This document shows, piece by piece, positions 3,440-29,071 of a stretch of 41,943 nt of DNA. Position 1 is the stretch's first letter. Each line of letters opens with the position of its first letter. Below the pieces are notes generated by a model. It saw only the letters and a list, made by a program, of their open reading frames with translations. It was not told where the DNA came from and ran no database searches. A program made the translations under genes and the position numbers. The stretch is from sequence record SRR22947725_3577; one strand, 5' to 3'.

Positions 3440-5371
3440 TCATTCTGAAGAAATAGATTTAATCTCTATTTCAGGCTCAGTAGACATTCTTAATTTGTTA
3501 GCTAAAAACCAAACTACTCCAACACCTAATGCCCACCAAATAATTTGCCATGCCCAGATGGATGGCATTCCAAGCATCCAATCCTCATAACCATTGTTTG
3601 GCTTTCCAAAAACAAAGTTACCAAATATAGATCCAGGCCCTATAGCAAAGAACATCCAAACCATTAATAGAAGACCTCCAACAGGTTTAGACCAGCGGTC
3701 ATTATTTTTCCTAATACTATGCTCTCGAATAAAAGAATGGAATTTCTCTCTGTGCTCCCTATCTGGATCATTATTAGTCAAAAATGACATAATTAAACAA
3801 ATGGAAATATTAAAGAACATTCCCCATACAGCTGAATGAATTGTCCAGGGCCATACCCCCCATGGAAGTCTTCCACCAGTTAATTTTTGTCCTAATGTAT
3901 CAGTAAAAACAACAACAATTAGCCCGATAATTAATCCAGCAATTGCTGCATTTTTCGTTATCCATGGAAACCAAGTAATACTTAATAATGATGGCCAGAG
4001 TTGAAATGAAAAAGCAATCGCTAAACCACCAAGTAGAAGTGTGGCTTCCATAGAAAAAGAAGCAAGCAACATTCCACATAAAAAAACTAAAGCAGTAAAA
4101 ATTTTTGCAGACTTAATTTGAAGTCTGTAATCTGCATCTTTGTTAAAGTATTGAACATAAATATCTCGACATAGAATATTTCCTGTCGTAAACATAAACG
4201 CAGCAGCAGTAACTTGTAAAGCAGCAACTGCACAAATTGTAAGAAAGCCAAACATCCATGGCGAAGAATTGCCTATAAGCTTTATATAATGTATGACTAA
4301 TTCTGTATATTGCTCTTTAGATAGCTCGGGTAAGTAATTAGCTACTGCAAATCCAGCTTTATTTACAGCACTACTTGCCCCAAGTAAATTTGCACTGACT
4401 CCTTGTAGTGTAGAAAATAAAAGCATAATAATGCCGACACAAGCTGCAGCTCCCCATATTTGATGAATTGAGAACCCTTTAGGAGATTTGCTCGTAAATC
4501 CCAACATTGTGAAAGTAGGTGAAGATTGGATTCCCATAACTGACATCATAAATGTAAGAGTCATAATTGCTGTCCAAGGACCACCTTTTGGAGTTTCTAC
4601 TCCAATACCGTCAGTAAATTGAATAACACCAGGAATTGAAAAATATCCAGGGAAGTTTCCACCGCCCATTCCTTTTGTTTTTCCAAGATGACTAGTTAGG
4701 CTTTTAGCCATATTTGCTAAACCTTCATTTAAATTGTCAAAACCACCAACAAGATTAAGAGCAATAACCCCCAGTAATATCATTCCAAGAAAAAATAATA
4801 TAGTCTGAACAACTGAAATTTTTGCAATAGCCTGCATTCCCCCCATAATTGAATACAAAAGTACAAATCCAGATAATGACCACATAGCTACATTTCGGGA
4901 AAAAATACCGTTAGTTAGTTCACTTATCAAAAATCCTGAAGAGCCAAAAAGAAGTGCTGCAAAGGGTATGCCAAAAAGCAGAGCTATCCCTACAGAAATG
5001 ATTCTTAAAGTGTCATCTTTAAAGTATGCTGCTAACATTTCACCAGCTGTAGTATAGCCAAATCGTCTTCCAAGCATCCATTGCCTTTTAAGTAGGACAA
5101 CACCTGAGATTGCAACAGCTATTGCAAAAAATGAGGTGTTTGCAAATTGAAAGCCATCCCTAAAAATAAGCCCTGGATGAGCAATAAAAGTCCATCCAGC
5201 AAAAGAAATACCGGTTGCTGCTATAGCAAATACCCATGGTGAAAGATTTCGCCCAGATAAAAAATAATCATCCCCAGTTGCTATTTGTTTTGAGGCTCTA
5301 ACCCCCCAAAAAAAACAGTAGGACCAGTAAAGGACCAAAAATATAAATATCCATGTTATTGCTTCAATCAT
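3440..5371 (-). CDS. Sodium:solute symporter (SSS) family transporter
   Basis: DDYFLSGRNL, GISFAGWTFIAHPG, GYTTAGEML, YSIMGGMQA; many TM helices. Confidence 0.85.
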   Translation of the reverse strand: MIEAITWIFIFLVLYWSYCFFWGVRASKQIATGDDYFLSGRNLSPWVFAIAATGISFAGWTFIAHPGLIFRDGFQFANTSFFAIAVAISGVVLLKRQWMLGRRFGYTTAGEMLAAYFKDDTLRIISVGIALLFGIPFAALLFGSSGFLISELTNGIFSRNVAMWSLSGFVLLYSIMGGMQAIAKISVVQTILFFLGMILLGVIALNLVGGFDNLNEGLANMAKSLTSHLGKTKGMGGGNFPGYFSIPGVIQFTDGIGVETPKGGPWTAIMTLTFMMSVMGIQSSPTFTMLGFTSKSPKGFSIHQIWGAAACVGIIMLLFSTLQGVSANLLGASSAVNKAGFAVANYLPELSKEQYTELVIHYIKLIGNSSPWMFGFLTICAVAALQVTAAAFMFTTGNILCRDIYVQYFNKDADYRLQIKSAKIFTALVFLCGMLLASFSMEATLLLGGLAIAFSFQLWPSLLSITWFPWITKNAAIAGLIIGLIVVVFTDTLGQKLTGGRLPWGVWPWTIHSAVWGMFFNISICLIMSFLTNNDPDREHREKFHSFIREHSIRKNNDRWSKPVGGLLLMVWMFFAIGPGSIFGNFVFGKPNNGYEDWMLGMPSIWAWQIIWWALGVGVVWFLANKLRMSTEPEIEIKSISSE

Positions 5372-5421
5372 TATATTTATATTCCTGAGTTAAGTAATTA
5401 GATATCATTATGAATTCAATA

Positions 5422-6855
5422 TTAAATTTGTGTTCTGATGTGTGGGGATCTTGCATATAAAGCTACCATTGGCAGTATTAGAAGACCAAAAACAAACTGT
5501 TGCCCTTCATAGCTCAATCCAATACCAACTAAAAATGATGAAAGGACTTGCAATACAAGAACACCAATTACTGTAAAGCCATACCCTCCTTTCCCTCCAA
5601 GAAGAGAAGTACCTCCAACAACAACAGCTGCTATTGTTTGAAAAAGATAAGGACCACCAACACCTACAAACCCACCACCACTCCAGCCTAATAGTAAAAT
5701 ACCAGTAAGCGCGGAGACAAAACCACCAATTGCAAATGCTCCAATCCAGTATGCTCTTTCTGAAATAGATAATCTTGCTGCTGCAGTTCGATTTCCACCG
5801 ACTGCATATAGACTTCTGCCCCAAGTTGTATTCGATAGGGCAATAATCATAATGATCGATGCCACAACCCAGATCACGACTACAGGAGGGATACTAACCC
5901 CAAGAAAAGTTCCATTTGTAGCAGCAATATTTGATAACCATTTTGGAACTACGCCAAAAACACTACCTCCAAAGTCTGAACCAATAGTCGTTAGTGCTTG
6001 AACAGCTCCAGTCACAACAAAACCAACACCAAGAGTTAGAATAAGTGCTTGCCCTTGAAGTCGAAAACTTAATAAACCATTAACTAGTCCAACTCCTAAA
6101 CCCATGAGGAGTACTGCAATAATACAAATCCAAGGGGGTATGCCGAGTGTAATTAAGTACATCAAACCAATATTTGCAGCTCCAATTACAAAGCTTACTG
6201 ATAAATCTAAGCCTCCAAGAAGTACAACTAGAGTTTGTCCAATGCATGCAAGCCCAAGAAAAGAGGCAAAAAGAAGCATAGACTTAAGATTTAAAGTTGA
6301 TATAAAGCCATCTACAATAAGAGAGCCCATAATAAAAAGTCCAATTAGGACTGCTAAGCCCATAAGTGCACTTTTATTATTTTTTGCTACTGAATTAGTG
6401 ATTATCAATACTAGGAGTGTTAGAAAAAATACTACTAATGAGAGGATATTTTGCCATTGGAAAAAATCATCCATAGCAAAAGCAAGTGCAACAAATGCAA
6501 TAATCATTGCTAGTATTCCAATTATTGCTCCTCTATTACTTTTGATAAGAAAACTAAAATAACTATCTGTCTGATCTGAGTCTTCAACTTCCTGGATCTT
6601 TTGATCTAAATTATTTTCGTTGAGTGTTTCATCAGCATCATAGAAAGTTTCATTATATGTCCACCTTACAGATAGATGATGCCAGCCCCATAGTATTGAA
6701 CCAAAGATTGCAACTGTATATAGCATAACAAGTTGCGAAGGAGTATCATCAAAAAATCCTAAAACAGCACTTATAGCTGAAACTATTACGGCAATAATGA
6801 ATCCTAGCCATTTATAAAACGAAAAAGCGGCTTTTCCCATTCTATTTACACGCAT
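5422..6855 (-). CDS. Sugar-type (RbsC/BPD_transp_2) ABC permease with N-terminal extension
   Basis: GQTLVVLLGGLDLSV, GRSLYAVGGNRTAARLS (EAA-like), IAAVVVGGTSLLGGKG. Confidence 0.85.
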   Translation of the reverse strand: MRVNRMGKAAFSFYKWLGFIIAVIVSAISAVLGFFDDTPSQLVMLYTVAIFGSILWGWHHLSVRWTYNETFYDADETLNENNLDQKIQEVEDSDQTDSYFSFLIKSNRGAIIGILAMIIAFVALAFAMDDFFQWQNILSLVVFFLTLLVLIITNSVAKNNKSALMGLAVLIGLFIMGSLIVDGFISTLNLKSMLLFASFLGLACIGQTLVVLLGGLDLSVSFVIGAANIGLMYLITLGIPPWICIIAVLLMGLGVGLVNGLLSFRLQGQALILTLGVGFVVTGAVQALTTIGSDFGGSVFGVVPKWLSNIAATNGTFLGVSIPPVVVIWVVASIIMIIALSNTTWGRSLYAVGGNRTAAARLSISERAYWIGAFAIGGFVSALTGILLLGWSGGGFVGVGGPYLFQTIAAVVVGGTSLLGGKGGYGFTVIGVLVLQVLSSFLVGIGLSYEGQQFVFGLLILPMVALYARSPHIRTQI

Positions 6856-6889: not shown

Positions 6890-9034
6890 TTATCCCTCCC
6901 ACTTACTTATAGCATCATCTTTATGATCACCGATAATGTAAGTACTAATAATGTGCATTACATTTGGAGCAGAAATAACTGTAATAGCAATAATGACAAT
7001 GAGTTTCCATATAGGTACACCTATTGCAAAAAATAAGCCACTCCAGGCTAAAGTAGCAAAAATAGGAATATACCAATATTTCCAAAAGCTTTTGAAGCTC
7101 GTCTCTTCCATAGCAATACGTAAAAATATTTGTAGCAATACGATAATAATTGCTATATAAGCTATCTCAGTAACTACTGCCATACCAGCTGATTCAATAT
7201 TGACCCTTATTGGAGTGGAATATTCAATTAATTGAGCTGGCACACTTTCTAAGCCAGTAGGAATAATAGGGTTTGAATAGTTGGTTATTGAGCTCAATGA
7301 AGGGTCAATAGCAACTGCGCTATTACCAACAAAGAAATACATAATAATTAACGTAACTATAGAAATACCACCAATAAATAGATTATTTATATTTTTAATT
7401 TCTGTATGAACTAAAGGTATTGTAATTGTAAAGAGGAGAGCTGAAACAAGGAGAATTGCATAAATCTCACCAGAAAAACTGCTCATTAAATAACCCTTGT
7501 CAGCATCTTGAAAAAATACAGCTCCAACTGCAATAACAGGTATTAATGAGATAAATAAAATCATTGCTATACGCTTAATATTCTTTTTAATTCCTGGCAG
7601 CATAGTAAGAATTATCAATGATGATAATAAAACTACCCCAATAAAACCAATGAATAGTGAAGTTGATTTACTTAATGATTCTGATGAGAGAGAGACTTGC
7701 TCTAAGCCAAATATACTCATTGAGTAATATTCCAATCCAATTGTGGCTGGTGTGAATACAGCATCTGTTGCCTCTGGATTAAATATTAGACCAAAAGCAG
7801 TAATGATTAAGATAATCAATAATCCAATCATTGGGGCACTGATATGTTTAAAAACCATCTTAATAATATAAGCACCCACTACTACTCCAATTATCATAAA
7901 GAACATAATTGTCCCTGCTGACAAGGTTTCCTGTTCAACTGCTGCAACAAAGGCCTTATATCTCTTTACTCCAAAGGATTTATCCATTGCTACGCTTACC
8001 ATAACTCCTGCTGAAATAATCCCCATTACTAAAAATACTAATCCTGGAGAGAGTCCGCGAGCTCGTTTTTGAAGAAATGGAATTGCAATACTGATTAATA
8101 ATGAAACAACTAACATAAGTCCATAGGACATATCAGTAATAAAGCTTTGCATTTTTCCAAAGTTAAAGGTCGAAAGTGCAAAAGTAATCAAAAATATATT
8201 TAGTGAGCCAAGAAGAGCTCCAAAAGCACTTCCACGACCACCTGCTAAATTGGCTCCACCAAGCACAAGTGCAGTAACGGCCATCAATGTATAGGTTGTT
8301 CCTTGGCTTGGATCACCAGAGCTAATTAATGAAGTAAAAGTTATTGCAGCAAGTCCTGCGTAAATACCTCCTACGACGTGAGCTCCTATTCGTACCATGT
8401 TGACATTAACACCACTTGTATAAGTTGCACGCTCATCTGAACCCATCATTTTTAGATTTCCCCAGAATGCCGTTTGAGCTAAGAGGTACCAGCCTGCTGT
8501 TGCAACGATTAATATTACGAGAACAGGAGAAAAAATAGAGGTTCCAGCACCCCAACTGTACATCCAATCTGGCGCTAATCCTGATGGTCTAGGCATAATT
8601 ATAAGATTCAAGCCCACAAGTGACAGATAGCCACTTAAGGAAACAATAATTGGCTGGACACGAACAAAAACAATGATTAAGGCCATCAAAATTTGATACG
8701 CTATACCAACGCCAATCGCATACAAGAAGATTGCAATCGGTGACTCTATGAAGCCTATGCCAATCAGTTGAATCATTCCGACATTTATAAATCCAATTAA
8801 TGGACCAATTGATAAGTCCACCCCGGCTCTTCCAGCCATAACGATTACCGTCAGTGCATAGGTCGCAAGAATTAATGGAGCAACTACAATTATTAAGCCA
8901 CCAAAACCAGTACTTGAGACTAGATAGGGTCCTCTAATTACTGCGAATATAAGCAATAAAAAGAAAATTACAATAGGCACTATAAGATAGGTACTAGCAC
9001 CTGAATTTGACTCTTGTTTTTTTGTTAATTCCAT
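6890..9034 (-). CDS. Sugar-type ABC permease with about 390-aa multi-TM C-terminal extension
   Basis: N-terminal ~325 aa: GVDLSIGP, GSDERATYTSGVN, TALVLGGANLAGGRGS; the remainder is hydrophobic and not recognised. Confidence 0.85.
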   Translation of the reverse strand: MELTKKQESNSGASTYLIVPIVIFFLLLIFAVIRGPYLVSSTGFGGLIIVVAPLILATYALTVIVMAGRAGVDLSIGPLIGFINVGMIQLIGIGFIESPIAIFLYAIGVGIAYQILMALIIVFVRVQPIIVSLSGYLSLVGLNLIIMPRPSGLAPDWMYSWGAGTSIFSPVLVILIVATAGWYLLAQTAFWGNLKMMGSDERATYTSGVNVNMVRIGAHVVGGIYAGLAAITFTSLISSGDPSQGTTYTLMAVTALVLGGANLAGGRGSAFGALLGSLNIFLITFALSTFNFGKMQSFITDMSYGLMLVVSLLISIAIPFLQKRARGLSPGLVFLVMGIISAGVMVSVAMDKSFGVKRYKAFVAAVEQETLSAGTIMFFMIIGVVVGAYIIKMVFKHISAPMIGLLIILIITAFGLIFNPEATDAVFTPATIGLEYYSMSIFGLEQVSLSSESLSKSTSLFIGFIGVVLLSSLIILTMLPGIKKNIKRIAMILFISLIPVIAVGAVFFQDADKGYLMSSFSGEIYAILLVSALLFTITIPLVHTEIKNINNLFIGGISIVTLIIMYFFVGNSAVAIDPSLSSITNYSNPIIPTGLESVPAQLIEYSTPIRVNIESAGMAVVTEIAYIAIIIVLLQIFLRIAMEETSFKSFWKYWYIPIFATLAWSGLFFAIGVPIWKLIVIIAITVISAPNVMHIISTYIIGDHKDDAISKWEG

Positions 9035-11259: not shown

Positions 11260-11354
11260 TGCAACAAATAAAATTACTCTAAGCTAATGGTTATTTATTA
11301 AGAAGGTTTATGTGACCATAAATTCTATCTATAACCATCCAAAAGTATAGGTCT

Positions 11355-11383
11355 AGTTTACTACTATGACATACCATAGTCAA
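11355..11383 (-). promoter_or_regulatory. Sigma70-type promoter for the ATPase-permease-permease-SSS unit
   Basis: Minus strand TTGACT-17 bp-TAAACT. Confidence 0.5.
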
Positions 11384-11390
11384 TAGTATG
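11375..11390. promoter_or_regulatory. Quasi-palindromic operator, copy 1
   Basis: Minus strand CATACTATTGACTATG; 13/16 identical to 18367-18382. Confidence 0.45.
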
Positions 11391-11501
11391 TATATATTTA
11401 TACTTTTATATAAGATTAGCGAGTATTGGTGTTACAATGTTTGATAGAAAAAGTAACATTATTTGTTAGTTAATCTAAGTCTCTTCAATAGTATAAAAAA
11501 T

Positions 11502-12518
11502 ATGATCACACGTTTTGTAAATTATTTTATAAGCATAAAACAATTTTTTATAATCTCGTTTATTAAGGCTGGAGTGCTTCCATGGTTTTTAGGGGTTGCA
11601 TTGTTAACATTCTCATTAACTAGCGATAATTTCTTAACTACTCAAAATATAATGGGAGTTGCTAGACATTCCACTGACCTTATTCTGGTAGCTATGGCAC
11701 AGATGATTGTAATGCTTACTGCCGGACTAGACTTTTCAGTTGGCGTTATTCTTGCGATGACTTCTGTTGTGGCATCAATGACTATGGTCGCATTATGGTC
11801 TGGGTATGGAACAGGCTGGGAGGCAATATTTATAGGATGTTTAGCTGGATTATTAATAGGGGCATGTATTGGTCTTGTTAATGGCCTTGGTGTTGCTTTC
11901 TTAAGGGTTCCTCCCTTCATTATGACTCTTGGGATGTCTTCAATTATTTTTGGTTTAGCGCTTACTATTACTGGTGGTATACCGATTTATGGTGCCCCTG
12001 AATCATTTACTAATACTTTTGGTTATGGCACTTTCCTAGGGATTTCACTATCAATATGGGTGACCTTATTTTTTATTGGAATAGTATATATTTTCTTGAA
12101 TTTGACTAAGATGGGAAGATACTTTTATGCAATAGGAGGAAATGTTAGGGCTGCTGAGTTATCAGGAATTAATATTCGAGTGTATATTGTAAGTGCATAT
12201 GTTTTTTCAGCAATTATAACAAGTATTGCAGCTTTGCTAATTACTGCAAGATTAGAGACTGGTGAACCTAATATTGGCGCTAGCTACCCACTGCTTTCTA
12301 TCGCTGCTTGTGCTATTGGAGGAGTAAGTCTTCTGGGGGGAGTAGGAAGAGTTCAAAATGTTGTTTTAGGAGCGTTCTTTATTATTTTAATACAAAATGG
12401 TATGAACCTTATGAGGGTTGGTTCGTATCTGCAAATGGTTGTGATTGGCGCATTACTAATTGTAGCTATTAGTGCTGAATATTTTCGTCAGCAGATGTTA
12501 ACAACGGTAAAAAATTAG
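11502..12518 (+). CDS. Sugar-type (RbsC-like) ABC permease of the TorT-associated transporter
   Basis: TAGLDFSVG, RVPPFIMTLG, GRYFYAIGGNVRAAELSG, IGGVSLLGGVG; ATG at 11502 preferred over TTG at 11463. Confidence 0.9.
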   Translation: MITRFVNYFISIKQFFIISFIKAGVLPWFLGVALLTFSLTSDNFLTTQNIMGVARHSTDLILVAMAQMIVMLTAGLDFSVGVILAMTSVVASMTMVALWSGYGTGWEAIFIGCLAGLLIGACIGLVNGLGVAFLRVPPFIMTLGMSSIIFGLALTITGGIPIYGAPESFTNTFGYGTFLGISLSIWVTLFFIGIVYIFLNLTKMGRYFYAIGGNVRAAELSGINIRVYIVSAYVFSAIITSIAALLITARLETGEPNIGASYPLLSIAACAIGGVSLLGGVGRVQNVVLGAFFIILIQNGMNLMRVGSYLQMVVIGALLIVAISAEYFRQQMLTTVKN

Positions 12519-17453: not shown

Positions 17454-17469
17454 TGTATTGCAATGGAAA

Positions 17470-18162: not shown

Positions 18163-18334
18163 GTCTCAATTAAGTCTCTATAGTAATTAAATATGTAACG
18201 CTTAATCCTTGAGCTAAAAGGGCGTTTCGCATTGATTGTACATGATTTTTTTTATTAATAGGTGGGAGGGACTGCATACTTTATATATGTATACATACGA
18301 ATGGATCTAAATTAATATTAAATACATACTTTTG

Positions 18335-19660: not shown

Positions 19661-19704
19661 TTTATAGAGCTTAAAAATGACTTTTTAGGCTCTATAAATT
19701 TTTT
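19661..19704 (+). terminator. 17-bp stem-loop with U-tract after the SBP gene (terminator or mRNA stabiliser)
   Basis: TTTATAGAGCTTAAAAA-TGAC-TTTTTAGGCTCTATAAA-TTTTTT, one G-U pair. Confidence 0.75.
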
Positions 19705-19800
19705 GTAATCGTTTAGGTTTTTAAAGTTATTAAAAATTTGTTTTTTAAATAATTTAGAAGTAATAGTAATAAAAATAGAATTTAAAACTAAGGATTTTTT

Positions 19801-22586: not shown

Positions 22587-24965
22587 ATGTTGAGAATTAC
22601 TGGTTATAGTGACAAATATTCAGTTTGTCCAGGGGATAACATACAATTTTATATTAACTCTGAAAATAATGAGGTTTATGAAACACAAATCGTTCGTTTG
22701 ATTCATGGCGATACCAATCCAGAGGGTCCTGGTTATAAGGAAGAGGAAATTCAAGCTGATTGCAATAAAAGTTATCCTGGAAGAAACCAGAGAATCCATG
22801 GGGGTTCGTATGTGATTGTGCCCCAAGATGAGAGATTGAATGTTGAGAGTTTTACGCTTCAGTGTTATATCTTTCCAACTACTCCCGTTGTTGGCCTTGG
22901 AACGCCTCAAAAAGGACGCCAGGGCGTTTTAACAAAATGGGTAGAGGAAAGTAAAAGCGGCTACGGATTGTTCATTGATGAACATAATTGTCTATCAGTT
23001 GAAATAGGTGATGGTAGTGGTCAGATTATGAAGCTTTCCAGTGATAAAAAACTTTTACGAAAGGTTTGGTATCTCGCGGCAGTTAGTTATGATGCTAGAA
23101 CTGGAAAGGTGACGTTATTTCAAGAGCCTGTTGTAACCTCTACAAATGGCGGTCTTGGCCAAGGTTTACTTAACCCTGCTGAAGATACTACAGCAGTTGT
23201 TGAGTCCATCAACAGTATTAAGCCTGGCATTAATGATGCACCATTTCTTATAGCAGCAAGTACAAAGCATGAGAGATCAGGCAGGCATATTAGTGGAGGG
23301 CATTTTAAGGAAGTTATTGAGCCCATTGAATTGCCTGAACAAATTCATACTTATAACGGAAAAATTGATCGCCCAAGACTTTCGAGAAGAGCTTTATCAA
23401 GGTCTGAAATAGAATCTTTGGCAAGAGGCTATCAAGGATGTAAGGCTGAATTACGAAGTGATGTGGTTGGAGCATGGGATTTTCATGCCAATATAACTAC
23501 AAATATTGCTTCCACTTGCATTATTGATACATCGCCTTCAATGCTTAATGGCTCAATTATAAATATGCCTGTAAGGGCAATGACCGGTTTTAATTGGACT
23601 GGTGATGAGATTATTTATCACCATAAGCCTGAAGAGTATGGTGCAATACACTTTCATGATGACGATATAGATGATGCTCGTTGGGATGTTGATTTTGAAT
23701 TAAAAATTCCAGAAGGCTTAAAGAGTGGAGTTTATGCTGCTCGTTTAAGAATTGGGGGAGAGGACTCTCCAGAAACAGAGGATTACATTCCTTTTGTTAT
23801 TCGGCCACCTAGAGGAAAAACTACATCAAAATTGGCTTTCATTCTTCCAACCAATTCATATATAGCATACTCAAATGATAATCTTTGTACAAACTGTGTT
23901 GTAGCAGAGCTGTTGGCTGGAAAAGTTCCTGTTATGACTGCTGCTGATCTATATTTAAATGAGCATAGAGAGTATGGTCTTTCGACATATTCACTCCATT
24001 CAGATGGAAGCGGTGTTTGTTATTCATCTAGGCTAAGACCCATATTGAATATGCGTCCTAAATATCGTCATTGGTTGTCTCCATCATTATGGCAGCTTAA
24101 TGGTGACCTGCATCTTGTTGACTGGCTTGAGGCGAAAAACTTTGATTTTGATATTCATACTGATGAAGATTTACATAGAGAGGGTGTTGGATTATTAAAT
24201 AAATATCAAACCGTACTTACTGGAAGTCATCCTGAATATACTTCAGAAAAAATGTTTTCTGCTTATGAAAAGTATCAACAGGATGGTGGGCGCTGGATTT
24301 ATTTAGGCGCAAATGGGTTTTACTGGTGTAGTGAATATCATCCAGATAATACAAATATTATTGAGGTTCGAAAAGGGGAAGCAGGGACAAGGGCTTGGAC
24401 TGCCAATCCAGGAGAATATAATAATGCATTTGACGGCAAATATGGAGGCATGTGGCGTGCACGTGGGAGAATCCCTAGTAAGTTATGCGGGTTAACCTTT
24501 ACTGCTTATGGTTTTGATGTTTCCTCTTACTACGTTAGAGATAAAGATAGTGAAAGACCAGAAACTGCTTGGATTATGGAAGGCGTAGGTAATGGTGAAA
24601 AGATTGGTGATTTTGGTCTTGTTGGAGGAGGCGCCGCTGGTTTAGAATTAGATCGATATGATGTTGAATTTGGAACACCACATGATTCATATTTATTAGC
24701 ACATTCTGTTGGTCATACCAATTTGATGCTTCAAGTTAACGAAGAAATTCACTTTTCTGTAAGAGGTTATCACGGCGGAGGAACTGAAAACCCAATGGTT
24801 CGTGCGGATATGATTTTCTATAAAACACCAAATGATGGCGGGGTTTTTGCGCCTGGCTCATTGTCTTGGTGTGGCAGTCTTTCTCACAATAACTACAATA
24901 ATAATGTCTCTCGTATTACTGAGAATGCAATTCGAGGCTTTTTAAAAGAAGGTCCATTGCCTTAA
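22587..24965 (+). CDS. N,N-dimethylformamidase-like large (beta) subunit
   Basis: GYSDKYSVCPG, RLIHGDTNPEGPG, LamG-like domain, HFHDDD, YIAYSN, GLSTY, GSHPEY, LGANGFYW, GLELDR; no signal peptide. Confidence 0.9.
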   Translation: MLRITGYSDKYSVCPGDNIQFYINSENNEVYETQIVRLIHGDTNPEGPGYKEEEIQADCNKSYPGRNQRIHGGSYVIVPQDERLNVESFTLQCYIFPTTPVVGLGTPQKGRQGVLTKWVEESKSGYGLFIDEHNCLSVEIGDGSGQIMKLSSDKKLLRKVWYLAAVSYDARTGKVTLFQEPVVTSTNGGLGQGLLNPAEDTTAVVESINSIKPGINDAPFLIAASTKHERSGRHISGGHFKEVIEPIELPEQIHTYNGKIDRPRLSRRALSRSEIESLARGYQGCKAELRSDVVGAWDFHANITTNIASTCIIDTSPSMLNGSIINMPVRAMTGFNWTGDEIIYHHKPEEYGAIHFHDDDIDDARWDVDFELKIPEGLKSGVYAARLRIGGEDSPETEDYIPFVIRPPRGKTTSKLAFILPTNSYIAYSNDNLCTNCVVAELLAGKVPVMTAADLYLNEHREYGLSTYSLHSDGSGVCYSSRLRPILNMRPKYRHWLSPSLWQLNGDLHLVDWLEAKNFDFDIHTDEDLHREGVGLLNKYQTVLTGSHPEYTSEKMFSAYEKYQQDGGRWIYLGANGFYWCSEYHPDNTNIIEVRKGEAGTRAWTANPGEYNNAFDGKYGGMWRARGRIPSKLCGLTFTAYGFDVSSYYVRDKDSERPETAWIMEGVGNGEKIGDFGLVGGGAAGLELDRYDVEFGTPHDSYLLAHSVGHTNLMLQVNEEIHFSVRGYHGGGTENPMVRADMIFYKTPNDGGVFAPGSLSWCGSLSHNNYNNNVSRITENAIRGFLKEGPLP

Positions 24966-24989: not shown

Positions 24990-25358
24990 ATGACTTCAAA
25001 TAAGCATCCCGATATGATGGATCCACCTGTTGGTAAGTCAGTTGTTGGGACAAGTACTTTGCCTCTTAATGATTTAGAGAAGGATGTTATAAGTTCTTTG
25101 GATGAGGATAAAGTCAGTGATTTAGCAGAATGCTTATTCACTCTTAATAACAGGCATTATGGCCCAATTGCTGGAGCTTATGTTGCAGTTTGTACAATCG
25201 AAGGAAAGGAGTGGTGCGTGGGGCAATTAAATGCTGACCGTGCAAAGCCATTAATTCTCTTTGAGGATAAAGTATTTGGTTCGCCTGGAGAGGCTCAAGA
25301 TGAAGCCATTCGTTTGAAAGAAGAGCGAGGAGAATCAGTACCATGCAGAAACCATTAA
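24990..25358 (+). CDS. Divergent paralog of the dimethylformamidase small (alpha) subunit
   Basis: AAGGAG RBS; aligns without gaps over 30 aa with the next ORF (PIAGAYVAVC...G.....R..P vs PMAGKYVTIC...G.....R..P). Confidence 0.6.
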   Translation: MTSNKHPDMMDPPVGKSVVGTSTLPLNDLEKDVISSLDEDKVSDLAECLFTLNNRHYGPIAGAYVAVCTIEGKEWCVGQLNADRAKPLILFEDKVFGSPGEAQDEAIRLKEERGESVPCRNH

Positions 25359-25384: not shown

Positions 25385-25792
25385 ATGTTAGATAAAGAAA
25401 AAGGAGTAATGGCAAATGAATCTCATACAGAGACAGATGACTATATAACTAGGACTTATGTGATGCCACTTTTATTCGATGATGAATCACGAAGAAAATT
25501 AATTGCAGAACATAGAAATAGTCCAGTAGGTAATGCTCCCTCCAATGGGAGATCAGCGATAGAACATAGCCATGATCTTAGAAAAATTCTTGACAAGATG
25601 AGAAGAGCTCCAATGGCTGGCAAATACGTCACCATTTGTGTTCGAATGTTTGAGCAGTATAAGATTGGCATCGTATCAGGAATTCGAGGCGTTCCAGTTG
25701 ACATTCAGGAAGAAGTTTACTCATCAGAAGAGGCTTGTGAGCATGCCATCTTTTTAAAAAGAATTGCTGATTTAATGAATCATTACGGCTAG
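25385..25792 (+). CDS. N,N-dimethylformamidase-like small (alpha) subunit
   Basis: LIAEHRNSPVG, MRRAPMAGKY, SSEEACEHAIFLKRIADL resemble the Paracoccus small subunit (EEEAMHAVFLRRI-like end, recalled from memory). Confidence 0.8.
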   Translation: MLDKEKGVMANESHTETDDYITRTYVMPLLFDDESRRKLIAEHRNSPVGNAPSNGRSAIEHSHDLRKILDKMRRAPMAGKYVTICVRMFEQYKIGIVSGIRGVPVDIQEEVYSSEEACEHAIFLKRIADLMNHYG

Positions 25793-25795
25793 TTT

Positions 25796-25902: not shown

Positions 25903-25928
25903 CCCTTTAGATTAAGAGGTTATGAAAG

Positions 25929-26783
25929 CTATAAAATCCAATCTCTTACTTTTTTAAATATTTGAGATTCTTTATTTGCCAGTCTTTCTAAGACTCCAAA
26001 GTGGTCAACCTCGGGCTCAGCAAAGTAATCAAGTGGCGCTCTGTGTTCTTTCCATTTATCTACAAAATGATCTGTCTGCCAATGAAACTCAGGGGTTTCT
26101 CCTCCGCCTAGAGTAACCAGAATTGGAGCCTCAGTTTGGGGCTTAAAGAAGTGAGGGCTTAGTTCTTTACTCTCTTCATCATCCAAACCCAGCGCATCTG
26201 CTATGGTTGTCTCTCTGATTGGATCTAATTGATAAAGCCCGCTGATCGGAATTCCAGTTTTAACAATATCAGAGGGGAGTTCTTCTGAAATTTCTTTCCA
26301 GTCAGTCGCTAGAATCATTCCTGTAATGTGTCCTCCTGCTGAGTGACCAGAGACGTTGATTCGATTCTTTGATATGGCGTAATCATCCGCATTGTCCCAG
26401 ATCCATATGACTGCTTCACGAATTTTATCAACGATATTCGTCATACTAGCACTCGGGCATAATTGATAACCAATAAGCGCTACATCGATGCCAGAGTTGA
26501 CAAAGGATTCAGCTACGAAGCTGTAAACTGACTTGTCTCCTCTTTGCCAATAGCCACCATGAACAAAGATGAATAATGGTGCATTAGGTTTGCCGCACCT
26601 AAAGATATCCAGTTTGTCTTTCTCTCCACTTCCATACTGACAGTCCAGGGAAGAGTCGACTGTCTGACTAAATTTTTCACTTCTGTTAGACCATTTTTCA
26701 ATGAGGCCATCGAAATCTTCAACTAGAAGTCTAACGTTGTAACCTTTCTCGAGTATTGGGTCAATCGGTATTGTTCTTGCCAT
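25929..26783 (-). CDS. Alpha/beta hydrolase, arylformamidase (kynurenine formamidase-like)
   Basis: FVHGGYWQ, GHSAGGH nucleophile elbow, ISGLYQL, DHF catalytic His. Confidence 0.8.
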   Translation of the reverse strand: MARTIPIDPILEKGYNVRLLVEDFDGLIEKWSNRSEKFSQTVDSSLDCQYGSGEKDKLDIFRCGKPNAPLFIFVHGGYWQRGDKSVYSFVAESFVNSGIDVALIGYQLCPSASMTNIVDKIREAVIWIWDNADDYAISKNRINVSGHSAGGHITGMILATDWKEISEELPSDIVKTGIPISGLYQLDPIRETTIADALGLDDEESKELSPHFFKPQTEAPILVTLGGGETPEFHWQTDHFVDKWKEHRAPLDYFAEPEVDHFGVLERLANKESQIFKKVRDWIL

Positions 26784-26799
26784 TTTTATTCCTTATTCA

Positions 26800-27207
26800 T
26801 TAACTGGTTCTATTTTTATAGTAAGTATCCTTATGAATGATTAGCCCGTCCCTAAACGTTAGAACATCGATACTCAAAAAATCTTGAACCTCACCTGACT
26901 TTAGTTTAGCAATGCGATGAAACTCACAGTAAGCTTTGTCACCTGATACCCTGGTATCAATTGGTTTCCATTGAACACTTTCGACATTATTAAAGAGACC
27001 TTGAAAGATGCCTCTGATTGTCTCTAGACCCTCAAAGCGAGTGCCATTGATATTAGGACCAGCTGCTTGATCAAAGACTGCGTCCTCAGCAAAGAAAGAC
27101 ATGACAGCATCGATATCATTCCTATTGTAAGCATTCATAATTGCATCCAAAAGATTAGGAGTTATTCCTGCATCCTCTTTGCTAGTTTGTGAGTTAAAGA
27201 TTGACAT
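26800..27207 (-). CDS. SnoaL/NTF2-like protein
   Basis: AYNRNDIDAVMSFFAEDAVF, DVLTFRDGLIIHKDTY. Confidence 0.85.
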   Translation of the reverse strand: MSIFNSQTSKEDAGITPNLLDAIMNAYNRNDIDAVMSFFAEDAVFDQAAGPNINGTRFEGLETIRGIFQGLFNNVESVQWKPIDTRVSGDKAYCEFHRIAKLKSGEVQDFLSIDVLTFRDGLIIHKDTYYKNRTS

Positions 27208-27219
27208 TTTATTTACCTA

Positions 27220-27891
27220 TTAGGATGTCTCCTCGCCTTTGGCTTGAAGGGCAAAGAATTCTGAGGGTGAGTTGCCAAAGGGCTGCATTGCATGTTCTCT
27301 GAAGGCTGGACGTTCTTTAAGCCTATCGTACCAGGCTTCAATGCCTGGAAGTGGGGGCCTTTTGATATCCAAAACAAAATATTTATGAATTAAAACGCCT
27401 AAGGGAATATCTCCAAAAGTGAACTGATCTCCGGCGATAAAGTTATTATGAATTAAATGCTCATTAAGTACTTTAAGAATATCACCACTTTGCTGAGCCA
27501 TTTCAGCAATCTTAGCATAGTCTCTGTCTTTCTCTTCAGTCCTTACAAGTTGCCAAAAAACAGGGAAAAATGTCCCCATAAAGCTATCTGTTGACCAGGT
27601 CATCCACTGGTCAGATATGGCTGCTTTTTGAGGGTCTTCAGGATACAAGCTCCCTAGACCATATTGCCTTGCAAGGTAACGAATGACTGCGTGAGACTCC
27701 CACATTACAAAGCCGTTATCTCGAATGGTGGGTATCTTAGAGTTTGGGTTTAGAGCTTTATATTCATTAGTTTCAAGATCTCCAGTCTCAGCGCCTATGG
27801 AGTGTCTCTTGAAGTTAACTCCAAGCTCAGAAAGCGTCCAAAGTACCTGAATTACTTGATTGGCATTTTTTCTACCCCAAAGTTCTAGCAT
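27220..27891 (-). CDS. Glutathione S-transferase (GstB-like)
   Basis: LWGRKNANQV, LNPNSKIPTI, WESHAVIRYL, FTFGDI. Confidence 0.88.
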   Translation of the reverse strand: MLELWGRKNANQVIQVLWTLSELGVNFKRHSIGAETGDLETNEYKALNPNSKIPTIRDNGFVMWESHAVIRYLARQYGLGSLYPEDPQKAAISDQWMTWSTDSFMGTFFPVFWQLVRTEEKDRDYAKIAEMAQQSGDILKVLNEHLIHNNFIAGDQFTFGDIPLGVLIHKYFVLDIKRPPLPGIEAWYDRLKERPAFREHAMQPFGNSPSEFFALQAKGEETS

Positions 27892-27910
27892 GTATTACCT
27901 CTCCTAATTC

Positions 27911-29071
27911 TTAAGCTCCATCTGGATCAAATCTAGGCATCACTCTTTCTGAGAAAAGAGTCATGCTCTTGAGTATCTTTTGATAATCAAAGCCCGGGAA
28001 TTGCTGCAGTAGCATAATGTGTTTAAGACCTATTGATTCATGATATTTTTGAATTTTTTCAGAGACATAGTCAGCATCTCCAACCCAGATAAGCTCATAT
28101 TTCATAAGAAAGTCAAACCACTCACCATTCAGGTCTTCATCCGTTGGGTTAGCATCATCATCAAGGTAGGCTTTTCGAGTCCAGCTTCCCTCTGGCCTTG
28201 AGCCGCTGAGATATTCATAGTAACCATTAATGGCAGCCCTTACATCTTTGTCAGCTTGCTCCATTGTCTCAGCAACATAAATAACAGTACATACTCCTAC
28301 ACCATCGCCTCTTTGATGATCTGTTCCATCATTTGACTCCGCGTTAGCATATGCATCCCAGCAGCTCACAAGTTTTCCAGGAGGGCTTGACATTCCTATG
28401 ACCTTAAAGCCTCTCTCAGATGCCAATTTATAGGTATGAGGAGAGTTTGACATTAACCATACTGGAGGGTGTGGATCCTGATAAGGTCTTGGATGAATAT
28501 ACATACCAGTATATCCCCCGTCTTCAGAGTGATACTCTTTCTCAAGAGGCATTAGAAAGCGGTTTGTTTCTTTCCAACCAGGCACAGGAAACTCATAAAA
28601 TTCTCCTTTATGTTTGAAAGGATCTTGCGTCCAAGCTTTTAAAATGACCTCAAGAGACTCCATAAAGAGTCTATAACTTTTCTCGTTATCTCTTCGATCA
28701 GCCTCTTTATTGAACTGAAGTGTGACTCTTTCATTAATCCCTTTAGCAACTCCAAAGTCAACCCTACCCTCTGTCATATTATCGAGAAGAGCTATATCCT
28801 CTGCTACCCTAAGTGGATGCCAGTCAGGAAGAACAATGGGCGCCTGACCAACTCGTATTTTTTTTGAGTGAGATGCTAAATCAAGTGACATCATTATAGG
28901 GTTTGGAGGGGCATTTAGATAGCCATTATGAGCAAAGTGATGTTCAGTAAGCCATACAGTTGTAAAGTCAGCTTGCTCAGCAAGATTTGTTTGCTCTCTC
29001 ATCATTTTGACGACACGATTCCATGGAATATTTTCACCAGGATTAAAGAATGGAACAAAGTCAAATCTCAT
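27911..29071 (-). CDS. Luciferase-like (LLM class) flavin-dependent monooxygenase
   Basis: VWLTEHHF, WHPLRVAEDIALLDNMTEGRVDFGVAKG, PRPYQDPHPPVW. Confidence 0.9.
   Translation of the reverse strand: MRFDFVPFFNPGENIPWNRVVKMMREQTNLAEQADFTTVWLTEHHFAHNGYLNAPPNPIMMSLDLASHSKKIRVGQAPIVLPDWHPLRVAEDIALLDNMTEGRVDFGVAKGINERVTLQFNKEADRRDNEKSYRLFMESLEVILKAWTQDPFKHKGEFYEFPVPGWKETNRFLMPLEKEYHSEDGGYTGMYIHPRPYQDPHPPVWLMSNSPHTYKLASERGFKVIGMSSPPGKLVSCWDAYANAESNDGTDHQRGDGVGVCTVIYVAETMEQADKDVRAAINGYYEYLSGSRPEGSWTRKAYLDDDANPTDEDLNGEWFDFLMKYELIWVGDADYVSEKIQKYHESIGLKHIMLLQQFPGFDYQKILKSMTLFSERVMPRFDPDGA

Follow-up and report, generated by a model that had tools for sequence, protein, structure and literature searches.

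INTRODUCTION

The genes for the flotillin-associated rhodopsin (FAR) and for flotillin were reported in 2023 to be co-transcribed in SAR11, and the available text of the same report describes a FAR cluster of Pseudothioglobus with a LuxR-type regulator and a hybrid kinase (PMC10308929). In the published view, FAR and flotillin form membrane microdomains that help the cell's proteorhodopsin to pump protons when light is low, for instance as a heterocomplex, and the transporter and enzyme genes next to them encode raft clients or bystanders. According to a preprint (10.1101/2025.04.29.651185), the solved PsFAR binds no retinal; its pocket is filled by the polar H84 and the flexible E120, with cavities around them, and the rhodopsin fold and the pentamer persist without the cofactor.

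The window, that is the whole stretch of 41,943 nucleotides analysed here, contains genes for FAR and flotillin among those for an ABC importer and a DMFase-type amidase. Comparison with many other genomes indicates that both are part of a regulated operon for nutrient import and amide cleavage, and not of a module that harvests light. We consider that the locus probably encodes one regulated uptake-and-hydrolysis system in which FAR and flotillin are light-independent parts of the transport machinery.

RESULTS

Two outward-facing units flank a regulatory module

The first-pass annotation had described two units split outward, and gene calls and profile matches bore out this gene content and orientation. 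The leftward unit encodes the elaborated importer and a symporter:

3440-5371, minus strand: sodium:solute symporter (SSS), 643 aa (PF00474, E 2.3e-22); closes the leftward unit and marks the island's left edge
5422-6855, minus strand: ABC permease perm477, 477 aa (BPD_transp_2, residues 191-461)
6890-9034, minus strand: ABC permease perm714, 714 aa (BPD_transp_2, residues 52-310)
9061-11259, minus strand: CUT2-type dual-ABC ATPase, 732 aa (NCBIfam xylose/ribose-type ATPases, residues 33-535)

These importer proteins are longer than normal, as had been noticed: the permease domain is confined to residues 17-324 in the 714-aa protein and to 160-470 in the 477-aa one, and the ABC core to residues 33-535 in the 732-aa ATPase. 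The extra N-terminal region of perm477 (about 160 aa, 3-4 hydrophobic segments by hydropathy) aligns across lineages, over residues 5-477. The extra C-terminal membrane domain of perm714 (residues ~325-714, about 8 hydrophobic segments) gave no Pfam match at E<=5 and nothing above 0.84 in the Atlas, and corresponds to no known family; in other lineages perm714 can be aligned over residues 9-714, this extension included, with 40-75% identity, and its counterpart in DMFase-free clusters is short, 468-485 aa in total. The ATPase tail (residues 535-732, DNA 9064-9657) contains four copies of Y-S-x-x-D-x-x-x-F-x-x-L, at residues 596, 635, 667 and 712, and the 11,211 aa of proteins encoded in the window contain no further copy. 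These repeats also occur in the ATPase tails of other loci (L005, L028, L030), and they form a separate ORF of ~205 aa after the ATPase in L039, L071, L085 and L094.

The module between the two units consists of a second, ordinary-sized ABC system and signalling genes:

11463-12518, plus strand: CUT2 permease of the TorT-linked ABC system, 351 aa (BPD_transp_2, E 1.1e-29)
12590-14650, plus strand: hybrid sensor kinase, HisKA-HATPase-REC (Pfam)
14664-16208, minus strand: CUT2 dual-ABC ATPase of ordinary size, 514 aa, AraG/XylG/RbsA-like (ABC_tran, E 2.9e-55)
16236-17516, minus strand: TorT-family periplasmic binding protein (NF008185, 285.9 bits, cut-off 200)
17470-18162, minus strand: NarL/ErdR-type response regulator, REC and GerE HTH (Pfam, NCBIfam)

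The 351-aa permease, the kinase, the 514-aa ATPase and the TorT-like protein travel together, in gammaproteobacterial loci only. The TorT-like protein matched 4YHS (E 7.7e-75) and TorT itself (3O1H, E 3.5e-35) in the PDB; its score against TIGR02955 was 219.6 bits, below the cut-off of 310, which counts against our preferred explanation. Its homologues align only from residues 31-46 on, and translation probably begins further downstream than the listed TTG. By hydropathy, the kinase has two hydrophobic segments with a sensor region between them that is about 180 aa long, and the protein scored 354.6 bits as NahK/ErcS-type and 206.8 bits as TorS, both under the NCBIfam cut-offs. A Pfam search found no HPt domain in the kinase, which, like the sub-threshold TorS score, counts against the same explanation.

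The rightward unit runs from the binding protein of the elaborated importer to the amidase:

18478-19650, plus strand: periplasmic substrate-binding protein (SBP) of the elaborated importer, 390 aa (Peripla_BP_4, E 7.4e-36)
19661-19698, plus strand: terminator-like hairpin 11 nt past the SBP stop codon, with a 17-pair stem and then a T-run
19801-20508, plus strand: FAR of the retinal-free type (PF01036, E 2.4e-32)
20551-22548, plus strand: flotillin, 665 aa (PF15975, E 5.7e-32; PF01145)
22587-24965, plus strand: DMFase-type iron amidase large subunit (DMFaseL), 792 aa (6LVB, E 4.8e-189)
24990-25358, plus strand: second DMFase small-subunit paralog, 122 aa (by paralogy to the 135-aa ORF)
25385-25792, plus strand: DMFase small subunit homologue, 135 aa (6lvb_B, E 1.1e-5); right edge of the island

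The solved relatives of the SBP are distant (4RS3/5HKO, E ~1e-21); the nearest bind sugars or polyols and so do not suggest a formamide. The flotillin has an N-terminal hydrophobic segment, an SPFH domain, a long E/A/K-rich coiled-coil region and a Flot domain. DMFaseL aligned over its full length to the Paracoccus DMFase, in which the roles of the Fe ligands and pocket residues are described (PMC7686228). All six of these (Y399, Y440, H519, E521, N547, F693) are conserved, as Y428, Y468, H548, E550, N576 and F723 of the window protein, and the iron site is intact. The earlier count of three DMFase-like subunits held, the 122-aa ORF being a weak paralog of the 135-aa one (31% over 59 aa, E 1e-6) with no PDB or Pfam match of its own.

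To the right of the unit lies a different set of genes:

25929-29071: HSL/BD-FAE-type alpha/beta hydrolase, SnoaL protein, GST and luciferase-like monooxygenase (profile matches)

The first-pass annotation had read these as a second formamidase operon and had drawn the right-hand boundary at 29071. Both proved wrong: the esterase/SnoaL/GST/luciferase-like unit directly adjoins a sucD-like gene at an empty site in G024 and is found in G020, a genome without the island, and it is therefore flank of the recipient chromosome. The accessory island itself covers about 22.5 kb (about 3432-25928).

A common motif abuts the promoter-like sites of both units

A 16-bp motif shared by the two units had also been claimed. 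It is present before both, but not as an exact repeat; the best pair (11381-11396, minus, and 18319-18334, plus) agrees at 14/16 positions around the exact 9-mer ATACATACT. The copies are:

11381-11396, minus strand: TATATACATACTATTG, upstream of the leftward unit, core ATACATACT at 11385-11393
18288-18303, plus strand: TGTATACATACGAATG, first copy upstream of the SBP gene
18319-18334, plus strand: TAAATACATACTTTTG, second copy upstream of the SBP gene

Both TATATACATACTATTG and TAAATACATACTTTTG abut a -35-like TTGACT. The leftward promoter-like site is TTGACT-17-TAAACT on the minus strand (first hexamer starting at 11383, second ending at 11355; 9/12), and the rightward one is TTGACT (18335)-16-TATACT (ending at 18362; 10/12, with TG). 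ATACATACT has exactly two exact copies in 41.9 kb, one in front of each of the two units and directed towards its genes; this count alone is weak, as 0.43 copies are expected by chance and at least two occurred in 8/100 shuffles. An exact copy of the 9-mer lies upstream of the ATPase in 9/9 split-type loci. With up to 3 changes the 16-mer lies upstream of SBP in 22/45 loci, namely 18/18 of the split type (window included), 4/6 of the Njordibacter type and 0/21 others. That a motif common to both split units adjoins a two-component system argues for their co-regulation.

FAR and its probable independence from light

The window FAR matched the retinal-free PsFAR (9R21) with E 1.1e-135 and the best proteorhodopsin with 1.9e-65, and it retains H84 and E120, the retinal-blocking residues; judged by these residues and matches, it belongs to the solved retinal-free type. 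Conceivably FAR plays an active part within the same operon, either as a sensor or gate that takes up the solute or a product as ligand in what was once the retinal pocket, or as a passive pore for the amine or acid product, and flotillin could then hold it beside the importer. The polar and flexible residues and the cavities of the PsFAR pocket, the fold and pentamer kept without cofactor, and the stronger conservation of FAR (75-84%, against 56-61% for ATPase/perm714 in L005 and L006) are consistent with such a role. However, position 84 varies among FARs (H/Q/F/I/R), as does position 120 (E/Q/G), D79 and K213 are lost in a divergent branch, and there is no associated transducer gene, so we regard an active FAR as unlikely.

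We give even less weight to the published role as helper of a proton pump. In its favour, the available text of PMC10308929 reports proteorhodopsin in every FAR-carrying SAG and a depth range in the lower photic zone, and the cluster is still listed among light-related genes (PMC12379486, in its available part). A second, proteorhodopsin-like gene, which is compatible with this idea, was present in 4/8 FAR genomes checked (G001, G124, G125, G492). Against it, no second rhodopsin (PF01036) was found in the other four, G123, G126, G429 (95% complete) and G155 (98%, single contig). The absence of retinal from PsFAR and the retention of H84 and E120 in the window protein speak against it as well. 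Moreover, the Schiff-base site (K213) shows K->R and K->L in the FAR-like genes of G155 and G492, which also have D79->G, and these lysine-less forms sit in the same SBP-ATPase-perm-perm-FAR-Flot-x-SSS frame. In most lineages the FAR gene has the permease gene on one side and the flotillin gene on the other, inside a solute-transport operon.

Linkage across genomes

The linkage of rhodopsin and flotillin to transporter and amidase genes, for which a synteny and co-occurrence check had been proposed, proved conserved in other lineages, over locus GC contents of 33 to 63%. In our sample of 80 metagenome FAR loci, not de-duplicated and with related loci not independent, flotillin followed FAR in 56/56 loci that extend 2.2 kb or more downstream, and DMFaseL was present in 29/29 that extend 7.5 kb or more. 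The upstream neighbour of FAR (58 loci) was perm477 in 35 and a same-strand SBP in 20. Fourteen loci were flanked by 9 kb or more of sequence on each side; SBP, ATPase, DMFaseL and both small subunits, the 122-aa ORF next to the large subunit, occurred in all 14, perm714 and SSS in 12 each and perm477 in 11. Other lineages, for example L005 and L006, have one co-directional operon, SBP-ATPase-perm714-perm477-FAR-Flot-SSS-DMFaseL-small-small. This is apparently the ancestral arrangement, and the split units of the window would be its two halves.

Among 122 family genomes, 11 contain full-length perm714, 9 contain flotillin and 11 contain DMFaseL (at least 90% identity); all three occurred together in 9/122, every match lay within one genus, and the three genes appear to be gained and lost as a unit. 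Two related clusters of FAR, flotillin and transporter genes (G155, G492) lack DMFase, so the amidase is exchangeable and cannot define the role of FAR and flotillin. Genes added elsewhere (oxoprolinase/hydantoinase, metallo-beta-lactamase-fold, alpha/beta-hydrolase, cupin, Fe-ADH) hint at a substrate more complex than DMF or NMF. The first-pass annotation had spoken of a streamlined genome, which is too narrow, as FAR clusters also occur in genomes of 3.0-5.4 Mb. Two cultured strains, Ca. Pseudothioglobus sp. Uisw_041 and Ca. Njordibacter sp. Uisw_039, carry the cluster.

RNA-library contigs (4 runs, 4 studies), which are not proof of transcription or of single transcripts, cover both units and bridge perm477-perm714-ATPase, SBP-FAR, FAR-Flot, Flot-DMFaseL and DMFaseL-small subunits. 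The hairpin and a promoter-like site between SBP and FAR suggest that FAR may not share the SBP promoter; the junction is spanned despite the hairpin.

That FAR-flotillin and transporter/amidase are independent modules sharing one mobile island is improbable: the island does behave as accessory (9-11/43 genomes of the genus, differing chromosomal sites, IS elements beside some versions, and a deletion scar in a close relative, the island-free G019, which keeps a 3' SSS remnant of residues 319-643 at 99% identity), but the order perm477-FAR-Flot is retained through numerous rearrangements and across deep divergence (FAR identity 27-100%), transporter-FAR-Flot-SSS stays constant while enzyme modules vary between lineages, and among 400 scored genomes of the class the FAR-like and flotillin genes adjoin the importer's permease type in 4/4 genomes having it.

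DISCUSSION

In the uptake-and-hydrolysis system that we favour, a small solute would be sensed by the TorT-family periplasmic protein and the hybrid kinase, and the signal would pass to the NarL/ErdR-type regulator. The regulator may act at the ATACATACT sites abutting the -35 of the two divergent promoters and thereby switch on both halves of an operon that is single elsewhere. These halves encode a CUT2-type ABC importer that depends on a binding protein, with extra membrane domains on its two permeases and a repeat-motif tail on its ATPase, and a sodium:solute symporter. A cytoplasmic DMFase-type iron amidase of one large and two small subunits would split a small N-substituted formamide-like amide into acid and amine; the conserved DMFase active site and the TorT-family sensor point to an N-formyl or methylated amine as a candidate substrate class. 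The retinal-free rhodopsin and flotillin most likely form a scaffold that would assemble or stabilise the transport machinery in a flotillin-bounded patch, and FAR or flotillin may contact the transporter. Of the first reading, the genes, the layout and a rhodopsin and flotillin embedded in a transporter/amidase operon are retained.

The window locus is the Pseudothioglobus form of the FAR gene cluster already published, as far as the available text of that report describes it (PMC10308929). New in comparison are the single-operon form, the linkage counts, the lysine-less FARs and the 4/8 genomes in which no second rhodopsin was found, together with the 9-mer at both -35s, the intact DMFase iron site, the ATPase-tail repeat and the two cultured carriers.

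Gene content and limits of the FAR island

The window was found to be near-identical to a single-cell genome record of Candidatus Pseudothioglobus singularis (L003), with 100% identity for the flotillin and 93-100% for the other genes. A listing of open reading frames, combined with Pfam and NCBIfam searches, bore out the gene map of the first-pass annotation, in which two outward-facing units are separated by a further module.

Genes of the island and of the unit adjoining it
3440-5371, minus strand: SSS transporter (643 aa)
5422-6855, minus strand: BPD_transp_2 permease (477 aa; perm477)
6890-9034, minus strand: BPD_transp_2 permease (714 aa; perm714)
9061-11259, minus strand: dual-ABC ATPase (732 aa)
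Between the two units: TorT-family binding protein, 514-aa ATPase and 351-aa permease (ordinary-sized CUT2), hybrid histidine kinase, NarL/ErdR-type regulator
18478-19650, plus strand: Peripla_BP_4 binding protein (390 aa; SBP)
19801-20508, plus strand: flotillin-associated rhodopsin (FAR)
20551-22548, plus strand: flotillin
22587-24965, plus strand: DMFase large subunit (DMFaseL)
24990-25358, plus strand: small ORF (122 aa; small122)
25385-25792, plus strand: small ORF (135 aa; small135)
25929-29071: HSL/BD-FAE-type alpha/beta hydrolase (BD-FAE/Abhydrolase_3, HSL-like NCBIfam), SnoaL_2 protein, GST and luciferase-like monooxygenase (Bac_luciferase)

The last of these units had been annotated as a second formamidase operon, and this assignment had to be abandoned, as the Pfam and NCBIfam searches detected no formamidase or amidase-family enzyme among its products. 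In one relative (G024) the hydrolase, SnoaL, GST and monooxygenase genes lie 33 nt from a sucD-like gene, forming an empty site, and the FAR island is located on another contig; in a second (G020) the monooxygenase is present and the island absent. Of the 14 FAR loci that are fully flanked (9 kb or more on each side of FAR), none contained the four genes. These three observations place the limits of the island at ~3432-25928, and the 25929-29071 unit belongs to the recipient chromosome and not to the island.

The island has the character of an accessory element. In G042, ~67 kb separate it from the sucD/RluD neighbourhood, which indicates that the insertion site differs between species. The complete genome of a close relative, G019, has no island; it shows 99.3% identity to window positions 2130-4418 (L089, G019:C1:1250000-1260000) with a break inside the SSS gene, of which only the part encoding residues 319-643 remains. 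Judged by the sequence, this break is the scar of a recent deletion of the FAR island. A deletion variant of the FAR cluster in Pseudothioglobus populations is described in the available part of PMC12379486.

The left flank (408-3431) carries an HpcH/HpaI-type aldolase/lyase gene followed by a sucC/sucD-like pair. A second sucD-like gene (~49-50% identity) was present in each genome checked, and the flanking pair may therefore encode a malate or other acyl-CoA ligase and not the housekeeping enzyme. An HpcH aldolase and a CoA-transferase also terminate the FAR-like cluster of G492. The right flank (29141-33917) consists of TPR-sulfotransferase and TPR-GT41 glycosyltransferase genes, which are multiplied and only 38-51% identical in G019, so that the island adjoins a hypervariable region.

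The rhodopsin and its flotillin

The rhodopsin-fold assignment of FAR was clear (PF01036, E 2.4e-32). FAR matched PsFAR (9R21) with an E of 1.1e-135 over residues 1-230 and the best proteorhodopsin (4JQ6) with 1.9e-65, and it is 45% identical to the genome's own proteorhodopsin-like gene; it thus falls within the FArhodopsin clade, closer to FARs than to the proton-pumping proteorhodopsins. In PsFAR, residues H84 and E120 block retinal binding, according to the available part of the structure paper (bioRxiv 10.1101/2025.04.29.651185). Both residues are kept in the window FAR when aligned to 9R21, and its retinal pocket is accordingly predicted to be blocked as well. The flotillin gene is co-directional and starts 42 nt downstream of FAR; both Flot and SPFH domains were found in its product.

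Co-occurrence of FAR, flotillin and the importer

We scanned metagenome contigs with a 21-sequence FAR alignment and obtained 80 loci with FAR proteins 59-100% identical; the loci were not de-duplicated, and related ones are not independent. Flotillin followed FAR directly in 56/56 loci with at least 2.2 kb downstream, and DMFaseL was present in 29/29 loci in which 7.5 kb or more lies downstream. On the upstream side of FAR, scored in 58 loci, the neighbour was perm477 in 35, a same-strand SBP in 20, and an opposite-strand SBP, perm351 (the 351-aa permease) or no gene in one each. All 14 fully flanked loci contained SBP, ATPase, flotillin, DMFaseL and both small subunits; perm714 and SSS were each found in 12 of them and perm477 in 11. 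The genes of the middle module were less frequent (TorT 5/14, the 514-aa ATPase 5/14, kinase 3/14, regulator 3/14, perm351 2/14). At least six gene orders were distinguished, at a locus GC of 33-63%. The two outward units of the window are joined into one co-directional operon both in L005, a gammaproteobacterial MAG of 3.3 Mb, and in L006, from Ca. Njordibacter sp. Uisw_039, with the order SBP-ATPase-perm714-perm477-FAR-Flot-SSS-DMFaseL-small122-small135.

Other lineages add genes to this set: a strongly conserved 129-aa ORF and Abhydrolase_1 after flotillin, a metallo-beta-lactamase-fold gene, PxpA/LamB, biotin carboxylase, cupin and Fe-ADH genes, and hydantoinase A/B in L039. None of them had a match in the window, so that the Pseudothioglobus form is a stripped core plus a regulatory module. 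The 129-aa ORF, for which Pfam has no family, comes after flotillin in most lineages (L062:12729-13118, L092:3177-3566 and a further 27 loci) and is missing from the window; its identity is 63% between clusters in which FAR shares only ~36% with the window FAR. It may correspond to the 'sterol-carrier-like' gene mentioned in the available text of PMC10308929. Transposase genes (rve; DDE_Tnp_1/DUF772) occur beside or inside some FAR clusters (L039:8662-9354; L092:17851-18492), and the hydantoinase-carrying L039 cluster is rearranged.

Among 122 genomes of the family, full-length perm714 was detected in 11, flotillin in 9 and DMFaseL (at least 90% identity) in 11. All three markers occurred together in 9/122 genomes, in 8 of these 9 on one contig; a contig end divides the DMFase gene of G030. 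Completeness of the four single-marker genomes is 54-82%. Marker matches were confined to one genus (43 genomes), and the other 79 family genomes gave only ordinary permease matches of ~25% identity. When a sample of 400 genomes of the class was scored, a perm714-type permease (E<=1e-40) was found in four (G001, G429, G155 and G492), and in all four FAR-like and flotillin genes lie beside it. Among strains in culture, Ca. Pseudothioglobus sp. Uisw_041 and Ca. Njordibacter sp. Uisw_039 carry the cluster, and both have closed genomes.

Two of these class genomes lack DMFase altogether: G155 (2.2 Mb, a single contig) and G492 (3.0 Mb). Their clusters have the order SBP-ATPase-permease-permease-FAR-like-flotillin-small ORF-SSS with a short first permease (468-485 aa). 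The cluster of G155 includes an IclR regulator, the 129-aa ORF, Abhydrolase_1, an MBL-fold gene and Fe-ADH, and that of G492 includes Abhydrolase_1, an HpcH-type aldolase and a family III CoA-transferase. The FAR-like proteins of both have lost the Schiff-base lysine (K->R, K->L) and carry D79->G. The clusters lacking DMFase indicate that the invariant unit consists of importer, FAR, flotillin and SSS, and that the enzymes are exchangeable.

We also searched eight cluster-bearing genomes with PF01036. A second rhodopsin was present in G001, G124, G125 and G492, and none beyond FAR was detected in G123, G126, G429 (95% complete) and G155 (98%, one contig), the last two being those of the four with a completeness figure. 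According to the available part of PMC10308929, every SAG with FAR also has a proteorhodopsin, from which the result for these four genomes differs. FAR homologues were also located on contigs of 3.8, 4.5 and 9.4 Mb. The retinal-synthesis marker beta-carotene dioxygenase (PF15461) was found in G124 only; since G125 has a proteorhodopsin-like gene and no PF15461 match, its absence elsewhere says little.

The importer and its extra domains

The importer encoded by the two units has a CUT2-type make-up, with a Peripla_BP_4 protein, a fused dual-ABC ATPase and BPD_transp_2 permeases; all equivalog scores were far under their cut-offs, so no substrate can be named for it. Canonical CUT2 sizes (permease ~330 aa, ATPase ~500 aa) are found in the neighbouring second CUT2 system (351 and 514 aa) and not in this one (714, 477 and 732 aa). 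Domain matches and hydropathy agreed with the earlier description of these permeases and the ATPase as longer than normal. The C-terminal domain of perm714 (~390 aa) has approximately eight hydrophobic segments and no family match, the N-terminal extra region of perm477 (~160 aa) has 3-4 hydrophobic segments, and both extensions align throughout the DMFase-type lineages. No credible Pfam match (E<=5) was obtained for the permease extensions, the ATPase tail, both small ORFs, or the 129-aa and 207-aa ORFs of other lineages, and a Protein Atlas search with the perm714 extension gave a best score of 0.84, to unnamed clusters. An AlphaFold2 model of perm714 (15-row alignment) was unusable (mean pLDDT 39.6, pTM 0.23), and a complex prediction of perm477 with FAR (22-row alignments) scored 0.00 against a mark of 0.32 and gave no evidence either way.

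The ATPase tail (residues 535-732; 9064-9657, minus strand) contains four spaced copies of Y-S-x-x-D-x-x-x-F-x-x-L. This pattern did not occur outside the tail in 11,211 aa of window proteins. The tail sequence itself is not conserved; the repeats are also present in the ATPase tails of three other loci (L005, L028, L030), and in four more (L039, L071, L085, L094) they form a separate ~205-aa ORF directly 3' of the ATPase gene. The tail may be a multivalent docking module.

The DMFase subunits

DMFaseL matched the Paracoccus DMFase 6LVB over its full length (E 4.8e-189). In the available part of Arya et al. 2020 (PMC7686228), Y399, Y440 and E521 are the Fe ligands and H519, N547 and F693 are catalytic or pocket residues; the corresponding window residues are Y428, Y468, E550, H548, N576 and F723. 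DMFase needs a small subunit to be active; the small135 protein matched that subunit, 6lvb_B (E 1.1e-5), and small122 is a weak paralog of small135, so that the description of three DMFase-like subunits held. A relative in the DMFase family, 8HUY, is an N-acetyl-beta-phenylalanine acylase, whose substrate is an N-acetyl amino acid. Away from any FAR cluster, a second paralog of the DMFase-like large subunit (41-42% identical) was located (G024:C10:10801-13065, G056:C93:153-2417, G429:C233:10917-13136); G056 has it, though no flotillin was found in that genome.

The sensing module and the promoter motif

The TorT-like protein scored 285.9 with NF008185 (cut-off 200) and 219.6 with TIGR02955 (cut-off 310), and is closer to the transport SBP 4YHS (E 7.7e-75) than to TorT 3O1H. 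Its ORF (16236-17516) is listed with a TTG start and a 47-nt overlap with the regulator gene (17470-18162); the homologues align only from residues 31-46, and the true start is thus probably downstream and the overlap an artefact. The kinase reached 206.8 and 132.4 bits with the TorS models (cut-offs 676.5 and 982), and Pfam detected HisKA, HATPase_c and Response_reg in it and no HPt domain.

The first-pass annotation reported a 16-bp motif upstream of both units. No exact 16-bp motif is common to them, the best pair agreeing at 14/16 positions. A core, ATACATACT, occurs exactly twice in the window (11385-11393, minus strand; 18322-18330, plus strand), each copy directed into its unit; the count is weak alone (0.43 expected; at least two copies in 8/100 shuffles). 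The exact core was found 5' of the ATPase in 9/9 split-type loci, i.e. those with two outward units. With up to three changes the 16-mer was present 5' of SBP in 22/45 loci: in 18/18 split-type loci (window counted; often two copies ~30 nt apart) and 4/6 of Njordibacter type, and in 0/5 of L028 type, 0/3 others (L005, L030, L039) and 0/13 of low-GC type C/D. The motif lies directly against a -35-like TTGACT in each of the two intergenic regions. The promoter-like sites are TTGACT-16-TATACT for the SBP unit (10/12, with TG; -10 element ending at 18362, plus strand) and TTGACT-17-TAAACT for the ATPase unit (9/12; -10 element ending at 11355, minus strand). We read the motif as a shared activator site, to which, most simply, the adjacent NarL/ErdR-type regulator would bind.

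A 17-pair hairpin with a T-run (19661-19698) lies 11 nt 3' of the SBP stop and is followed by a promoter-like site (19753-19781); the hairpin may act as an internal attenuator, giving higher levels of SBP than of the genes 3' of it. In the intergenic regions of the low-GC type C/D loci no perfect 7+7 palindrome was found under strict settings, apart from a perfect 14-bp one, TTCAGTATACTGAA, at L092:3032-3045, in the gap that separates the first gene of G155's DMFase-free, FAR-like cluster from the divergently oriented IclR gene. This palindrome is a candidate operator.

Expression

Both units are represented, gene junctions included, in contigs of four RNA libraries, which come from four studies; the contigs show presence in RNA libraries, not single transcripts or levels. 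One record (17) spans perm477, perm714, the ATPase and the intergenic region, and others span the junctions SBP-FAR (records 3, 21), FAR-flotillin (31), flotillin-DMFaseL (23) and DMFaseL-small subunits (8). Section 16 of PMC10308929 reports that the SAR11 cluster is transcribed and FAR and flotillin co-transcribed. In three runs (X8, X9, X11) the right unit appeared to have more depth than the left unit or the regulatory genes; we did not use this, because the runs had been picked with the right unit and genes cannot be ranked by contig depth. Gaps in the cover of X9 and X11 prove nothing. In run X8 only, adapter-bearing contigs end at 11327 and before 18400, 20-40 nt downstream of both predicted promoters, which is at best a very weak hint that they mark 5' ends.

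Proposed function of the island

The TorT-family binding protein and the hybrid kinase would sense a small solute and act via the NarL/ErdR-type regulator, which would use the ATACATACT sites to activate both promoters. Uptake of this solute or of related compounds would fall to the elaborated ABC importer and SSS, and the DMFase-type iron amidase, whose site residues are conserved, would cleave a small N-substituted formamide-like amide. Gene order and co-occurrence suggest that the retinal-free FAR and the flotillin are structural parts of the transport assembly. Taken as a whole, a regulated uptake-and-hydrolysis system is the general reading that we somewhat favour; any particular substrate is far less probable. 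The nearest solved relatives of SBP are sugar/polyol binders (E ~1e-21 only), which cautions against DMF as the natural substrate, and the presence of lactamase, hydantoinase and esterase genes in other lineages suggests a substrate more complex than DMF.

Comparative evidence supports well the earlier proposal that FAR and flotillin belong to a regulated transport and catabolic system and not to phototrophy; the proposed substrate, the induction and the scaffolding are hypotheses. We offer only tentatively a joint reading in which a retinal-free rhodopsin fold and its dedicated flotillin would be a structural subunit of a solute-uptake machine. It includes a conserved unit of SBP, ABC importer, FAR, flotillin and SSS; plug-in enzymes, with DMFase in most lineages and Fe-ADH, aldolase or CoA-transferase elsewhere; and docking elements, namely the extra permease domains and the multivalent ATPase-tail repeats. 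If true, a client complex of a bacterial flotillin would thereby be defined for the first time, and a microbial rhodopsin fold would gain its first role that is non-photic and linked to transport.

FArhodopsins are plentiful in certain marine bacteria that rank among the most common; the structure of one has been solved, and in the literature found they are still filed among light-related genes. The importer-operon context, the lysine-less versions, the hosts with no other rhodopsin, and the two-component system with its promoter motif provide a concrete hypothesis on the role of FAR. Since Uisw_041 and Uisw_039 are cultured and have closed genomes, induction, uptake and pull-down work is feasible now. 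Should the amidase accept small formamides, or amides related to these, as substrates, the island would also mark an unrecognised organic-nitrogen and C1 route in oligotrophic plankton.

Comparison with known systems

Relative to PsFAR (PDB 9R21, Kovalev et al., Pseudothioglobus), the window protein is from another strain and differs by a few dozen substitutions; the available part of the structure paper (bioRxiv 10.1101/2025.04.29.651185) proposes no function and found no obvious flotillin-binding adaptation. Like the bacterial flotillins FloT/FloA and YqiK, the window flotillin has an N-terminal membrane anchor, an SPFH domain, a coiled-coil region and a Flot domain. It is unlike FloT in reaching 27.5 bits with the FloT equivalog model (cut-off 700), and FAR-linked flotillins, unlike FloT/FloA/YqiK, are always paired with a rhodopsin-fold protein. 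The available sections of PMC10308929 place them in their own clade, and its section 18 gives scaffolding of transporters and signalling proteins as the proposed role of bacterial flotillin.

Paracoccus DMFase has one small subunit, whereas two small-subunit paralogs are present here, and the window gene is located in a transporter/flotillin operon of marine oligotrophs, Paracoccus being a solvent degrader. As in TorT-TorS TMAO sensing, the E. coli/Vibrio paradigm, the gene of a TorT-family periplasmic protein neighbours that of a hybrid kinase with a periplasmic sensor region. Unlike in that system, the TorT-like protein has its own ATPase and permease, the regulator is of NarL/ErdR type (TorR is an OmpR-type regulator), and there is no TMAO reductase.

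The OmrDE system (Nat Commun 2024, PMC11109279) also has a microbial rhodopsin gene beside ABC-transporter genes, and a heliorhodopsin is reported, in the available part of that paper, to act on the transporter. As described there, the heliorhodopsin is light-driven and retinal-binding, the ABC transporter is of exporter type, and no flotillin is involved. In contrast, FAR is retinal-free and stands beside a binding-protein-dependent importer.

The island is real and already published: Haro-Moreno et al. 2023 (PMC10308929) described the FAR cluster of SAR11, HIMB59 and Pseudothioglobus. Its available sections show the same rhodopsin paralog followed by a ~2-kb flotillin gene, together with an 'inner membrane translocator', a sodium symporter and N,N-dimethylformamidase, to which Pseudothioglobus adds a LuxR-type regulator and a hybrid kinase; the cluster is read there as a membrane-microdomain or dim-light helper of proteorhodopsin and the hosts are called streamlined. 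No paper in the literature searched assigns a function to FAR or ties it to an importer or amidase, and a paper on Arctic cultures never mentions flotillin, rhodopsin or formamidase. Placing FAR and flotillin in a transport system goes beyond the published interpretation. Compared with PMC10308929, the core here is an importer-FAR-flotillin-SSS operon with exchangeable enzymes, found also in genomes of 3-5.4 Mb and sometimes with no second rhodopsin; further additions are the promoter motif shared by both units, the borders of the island and the repeats in the ATPase tail.
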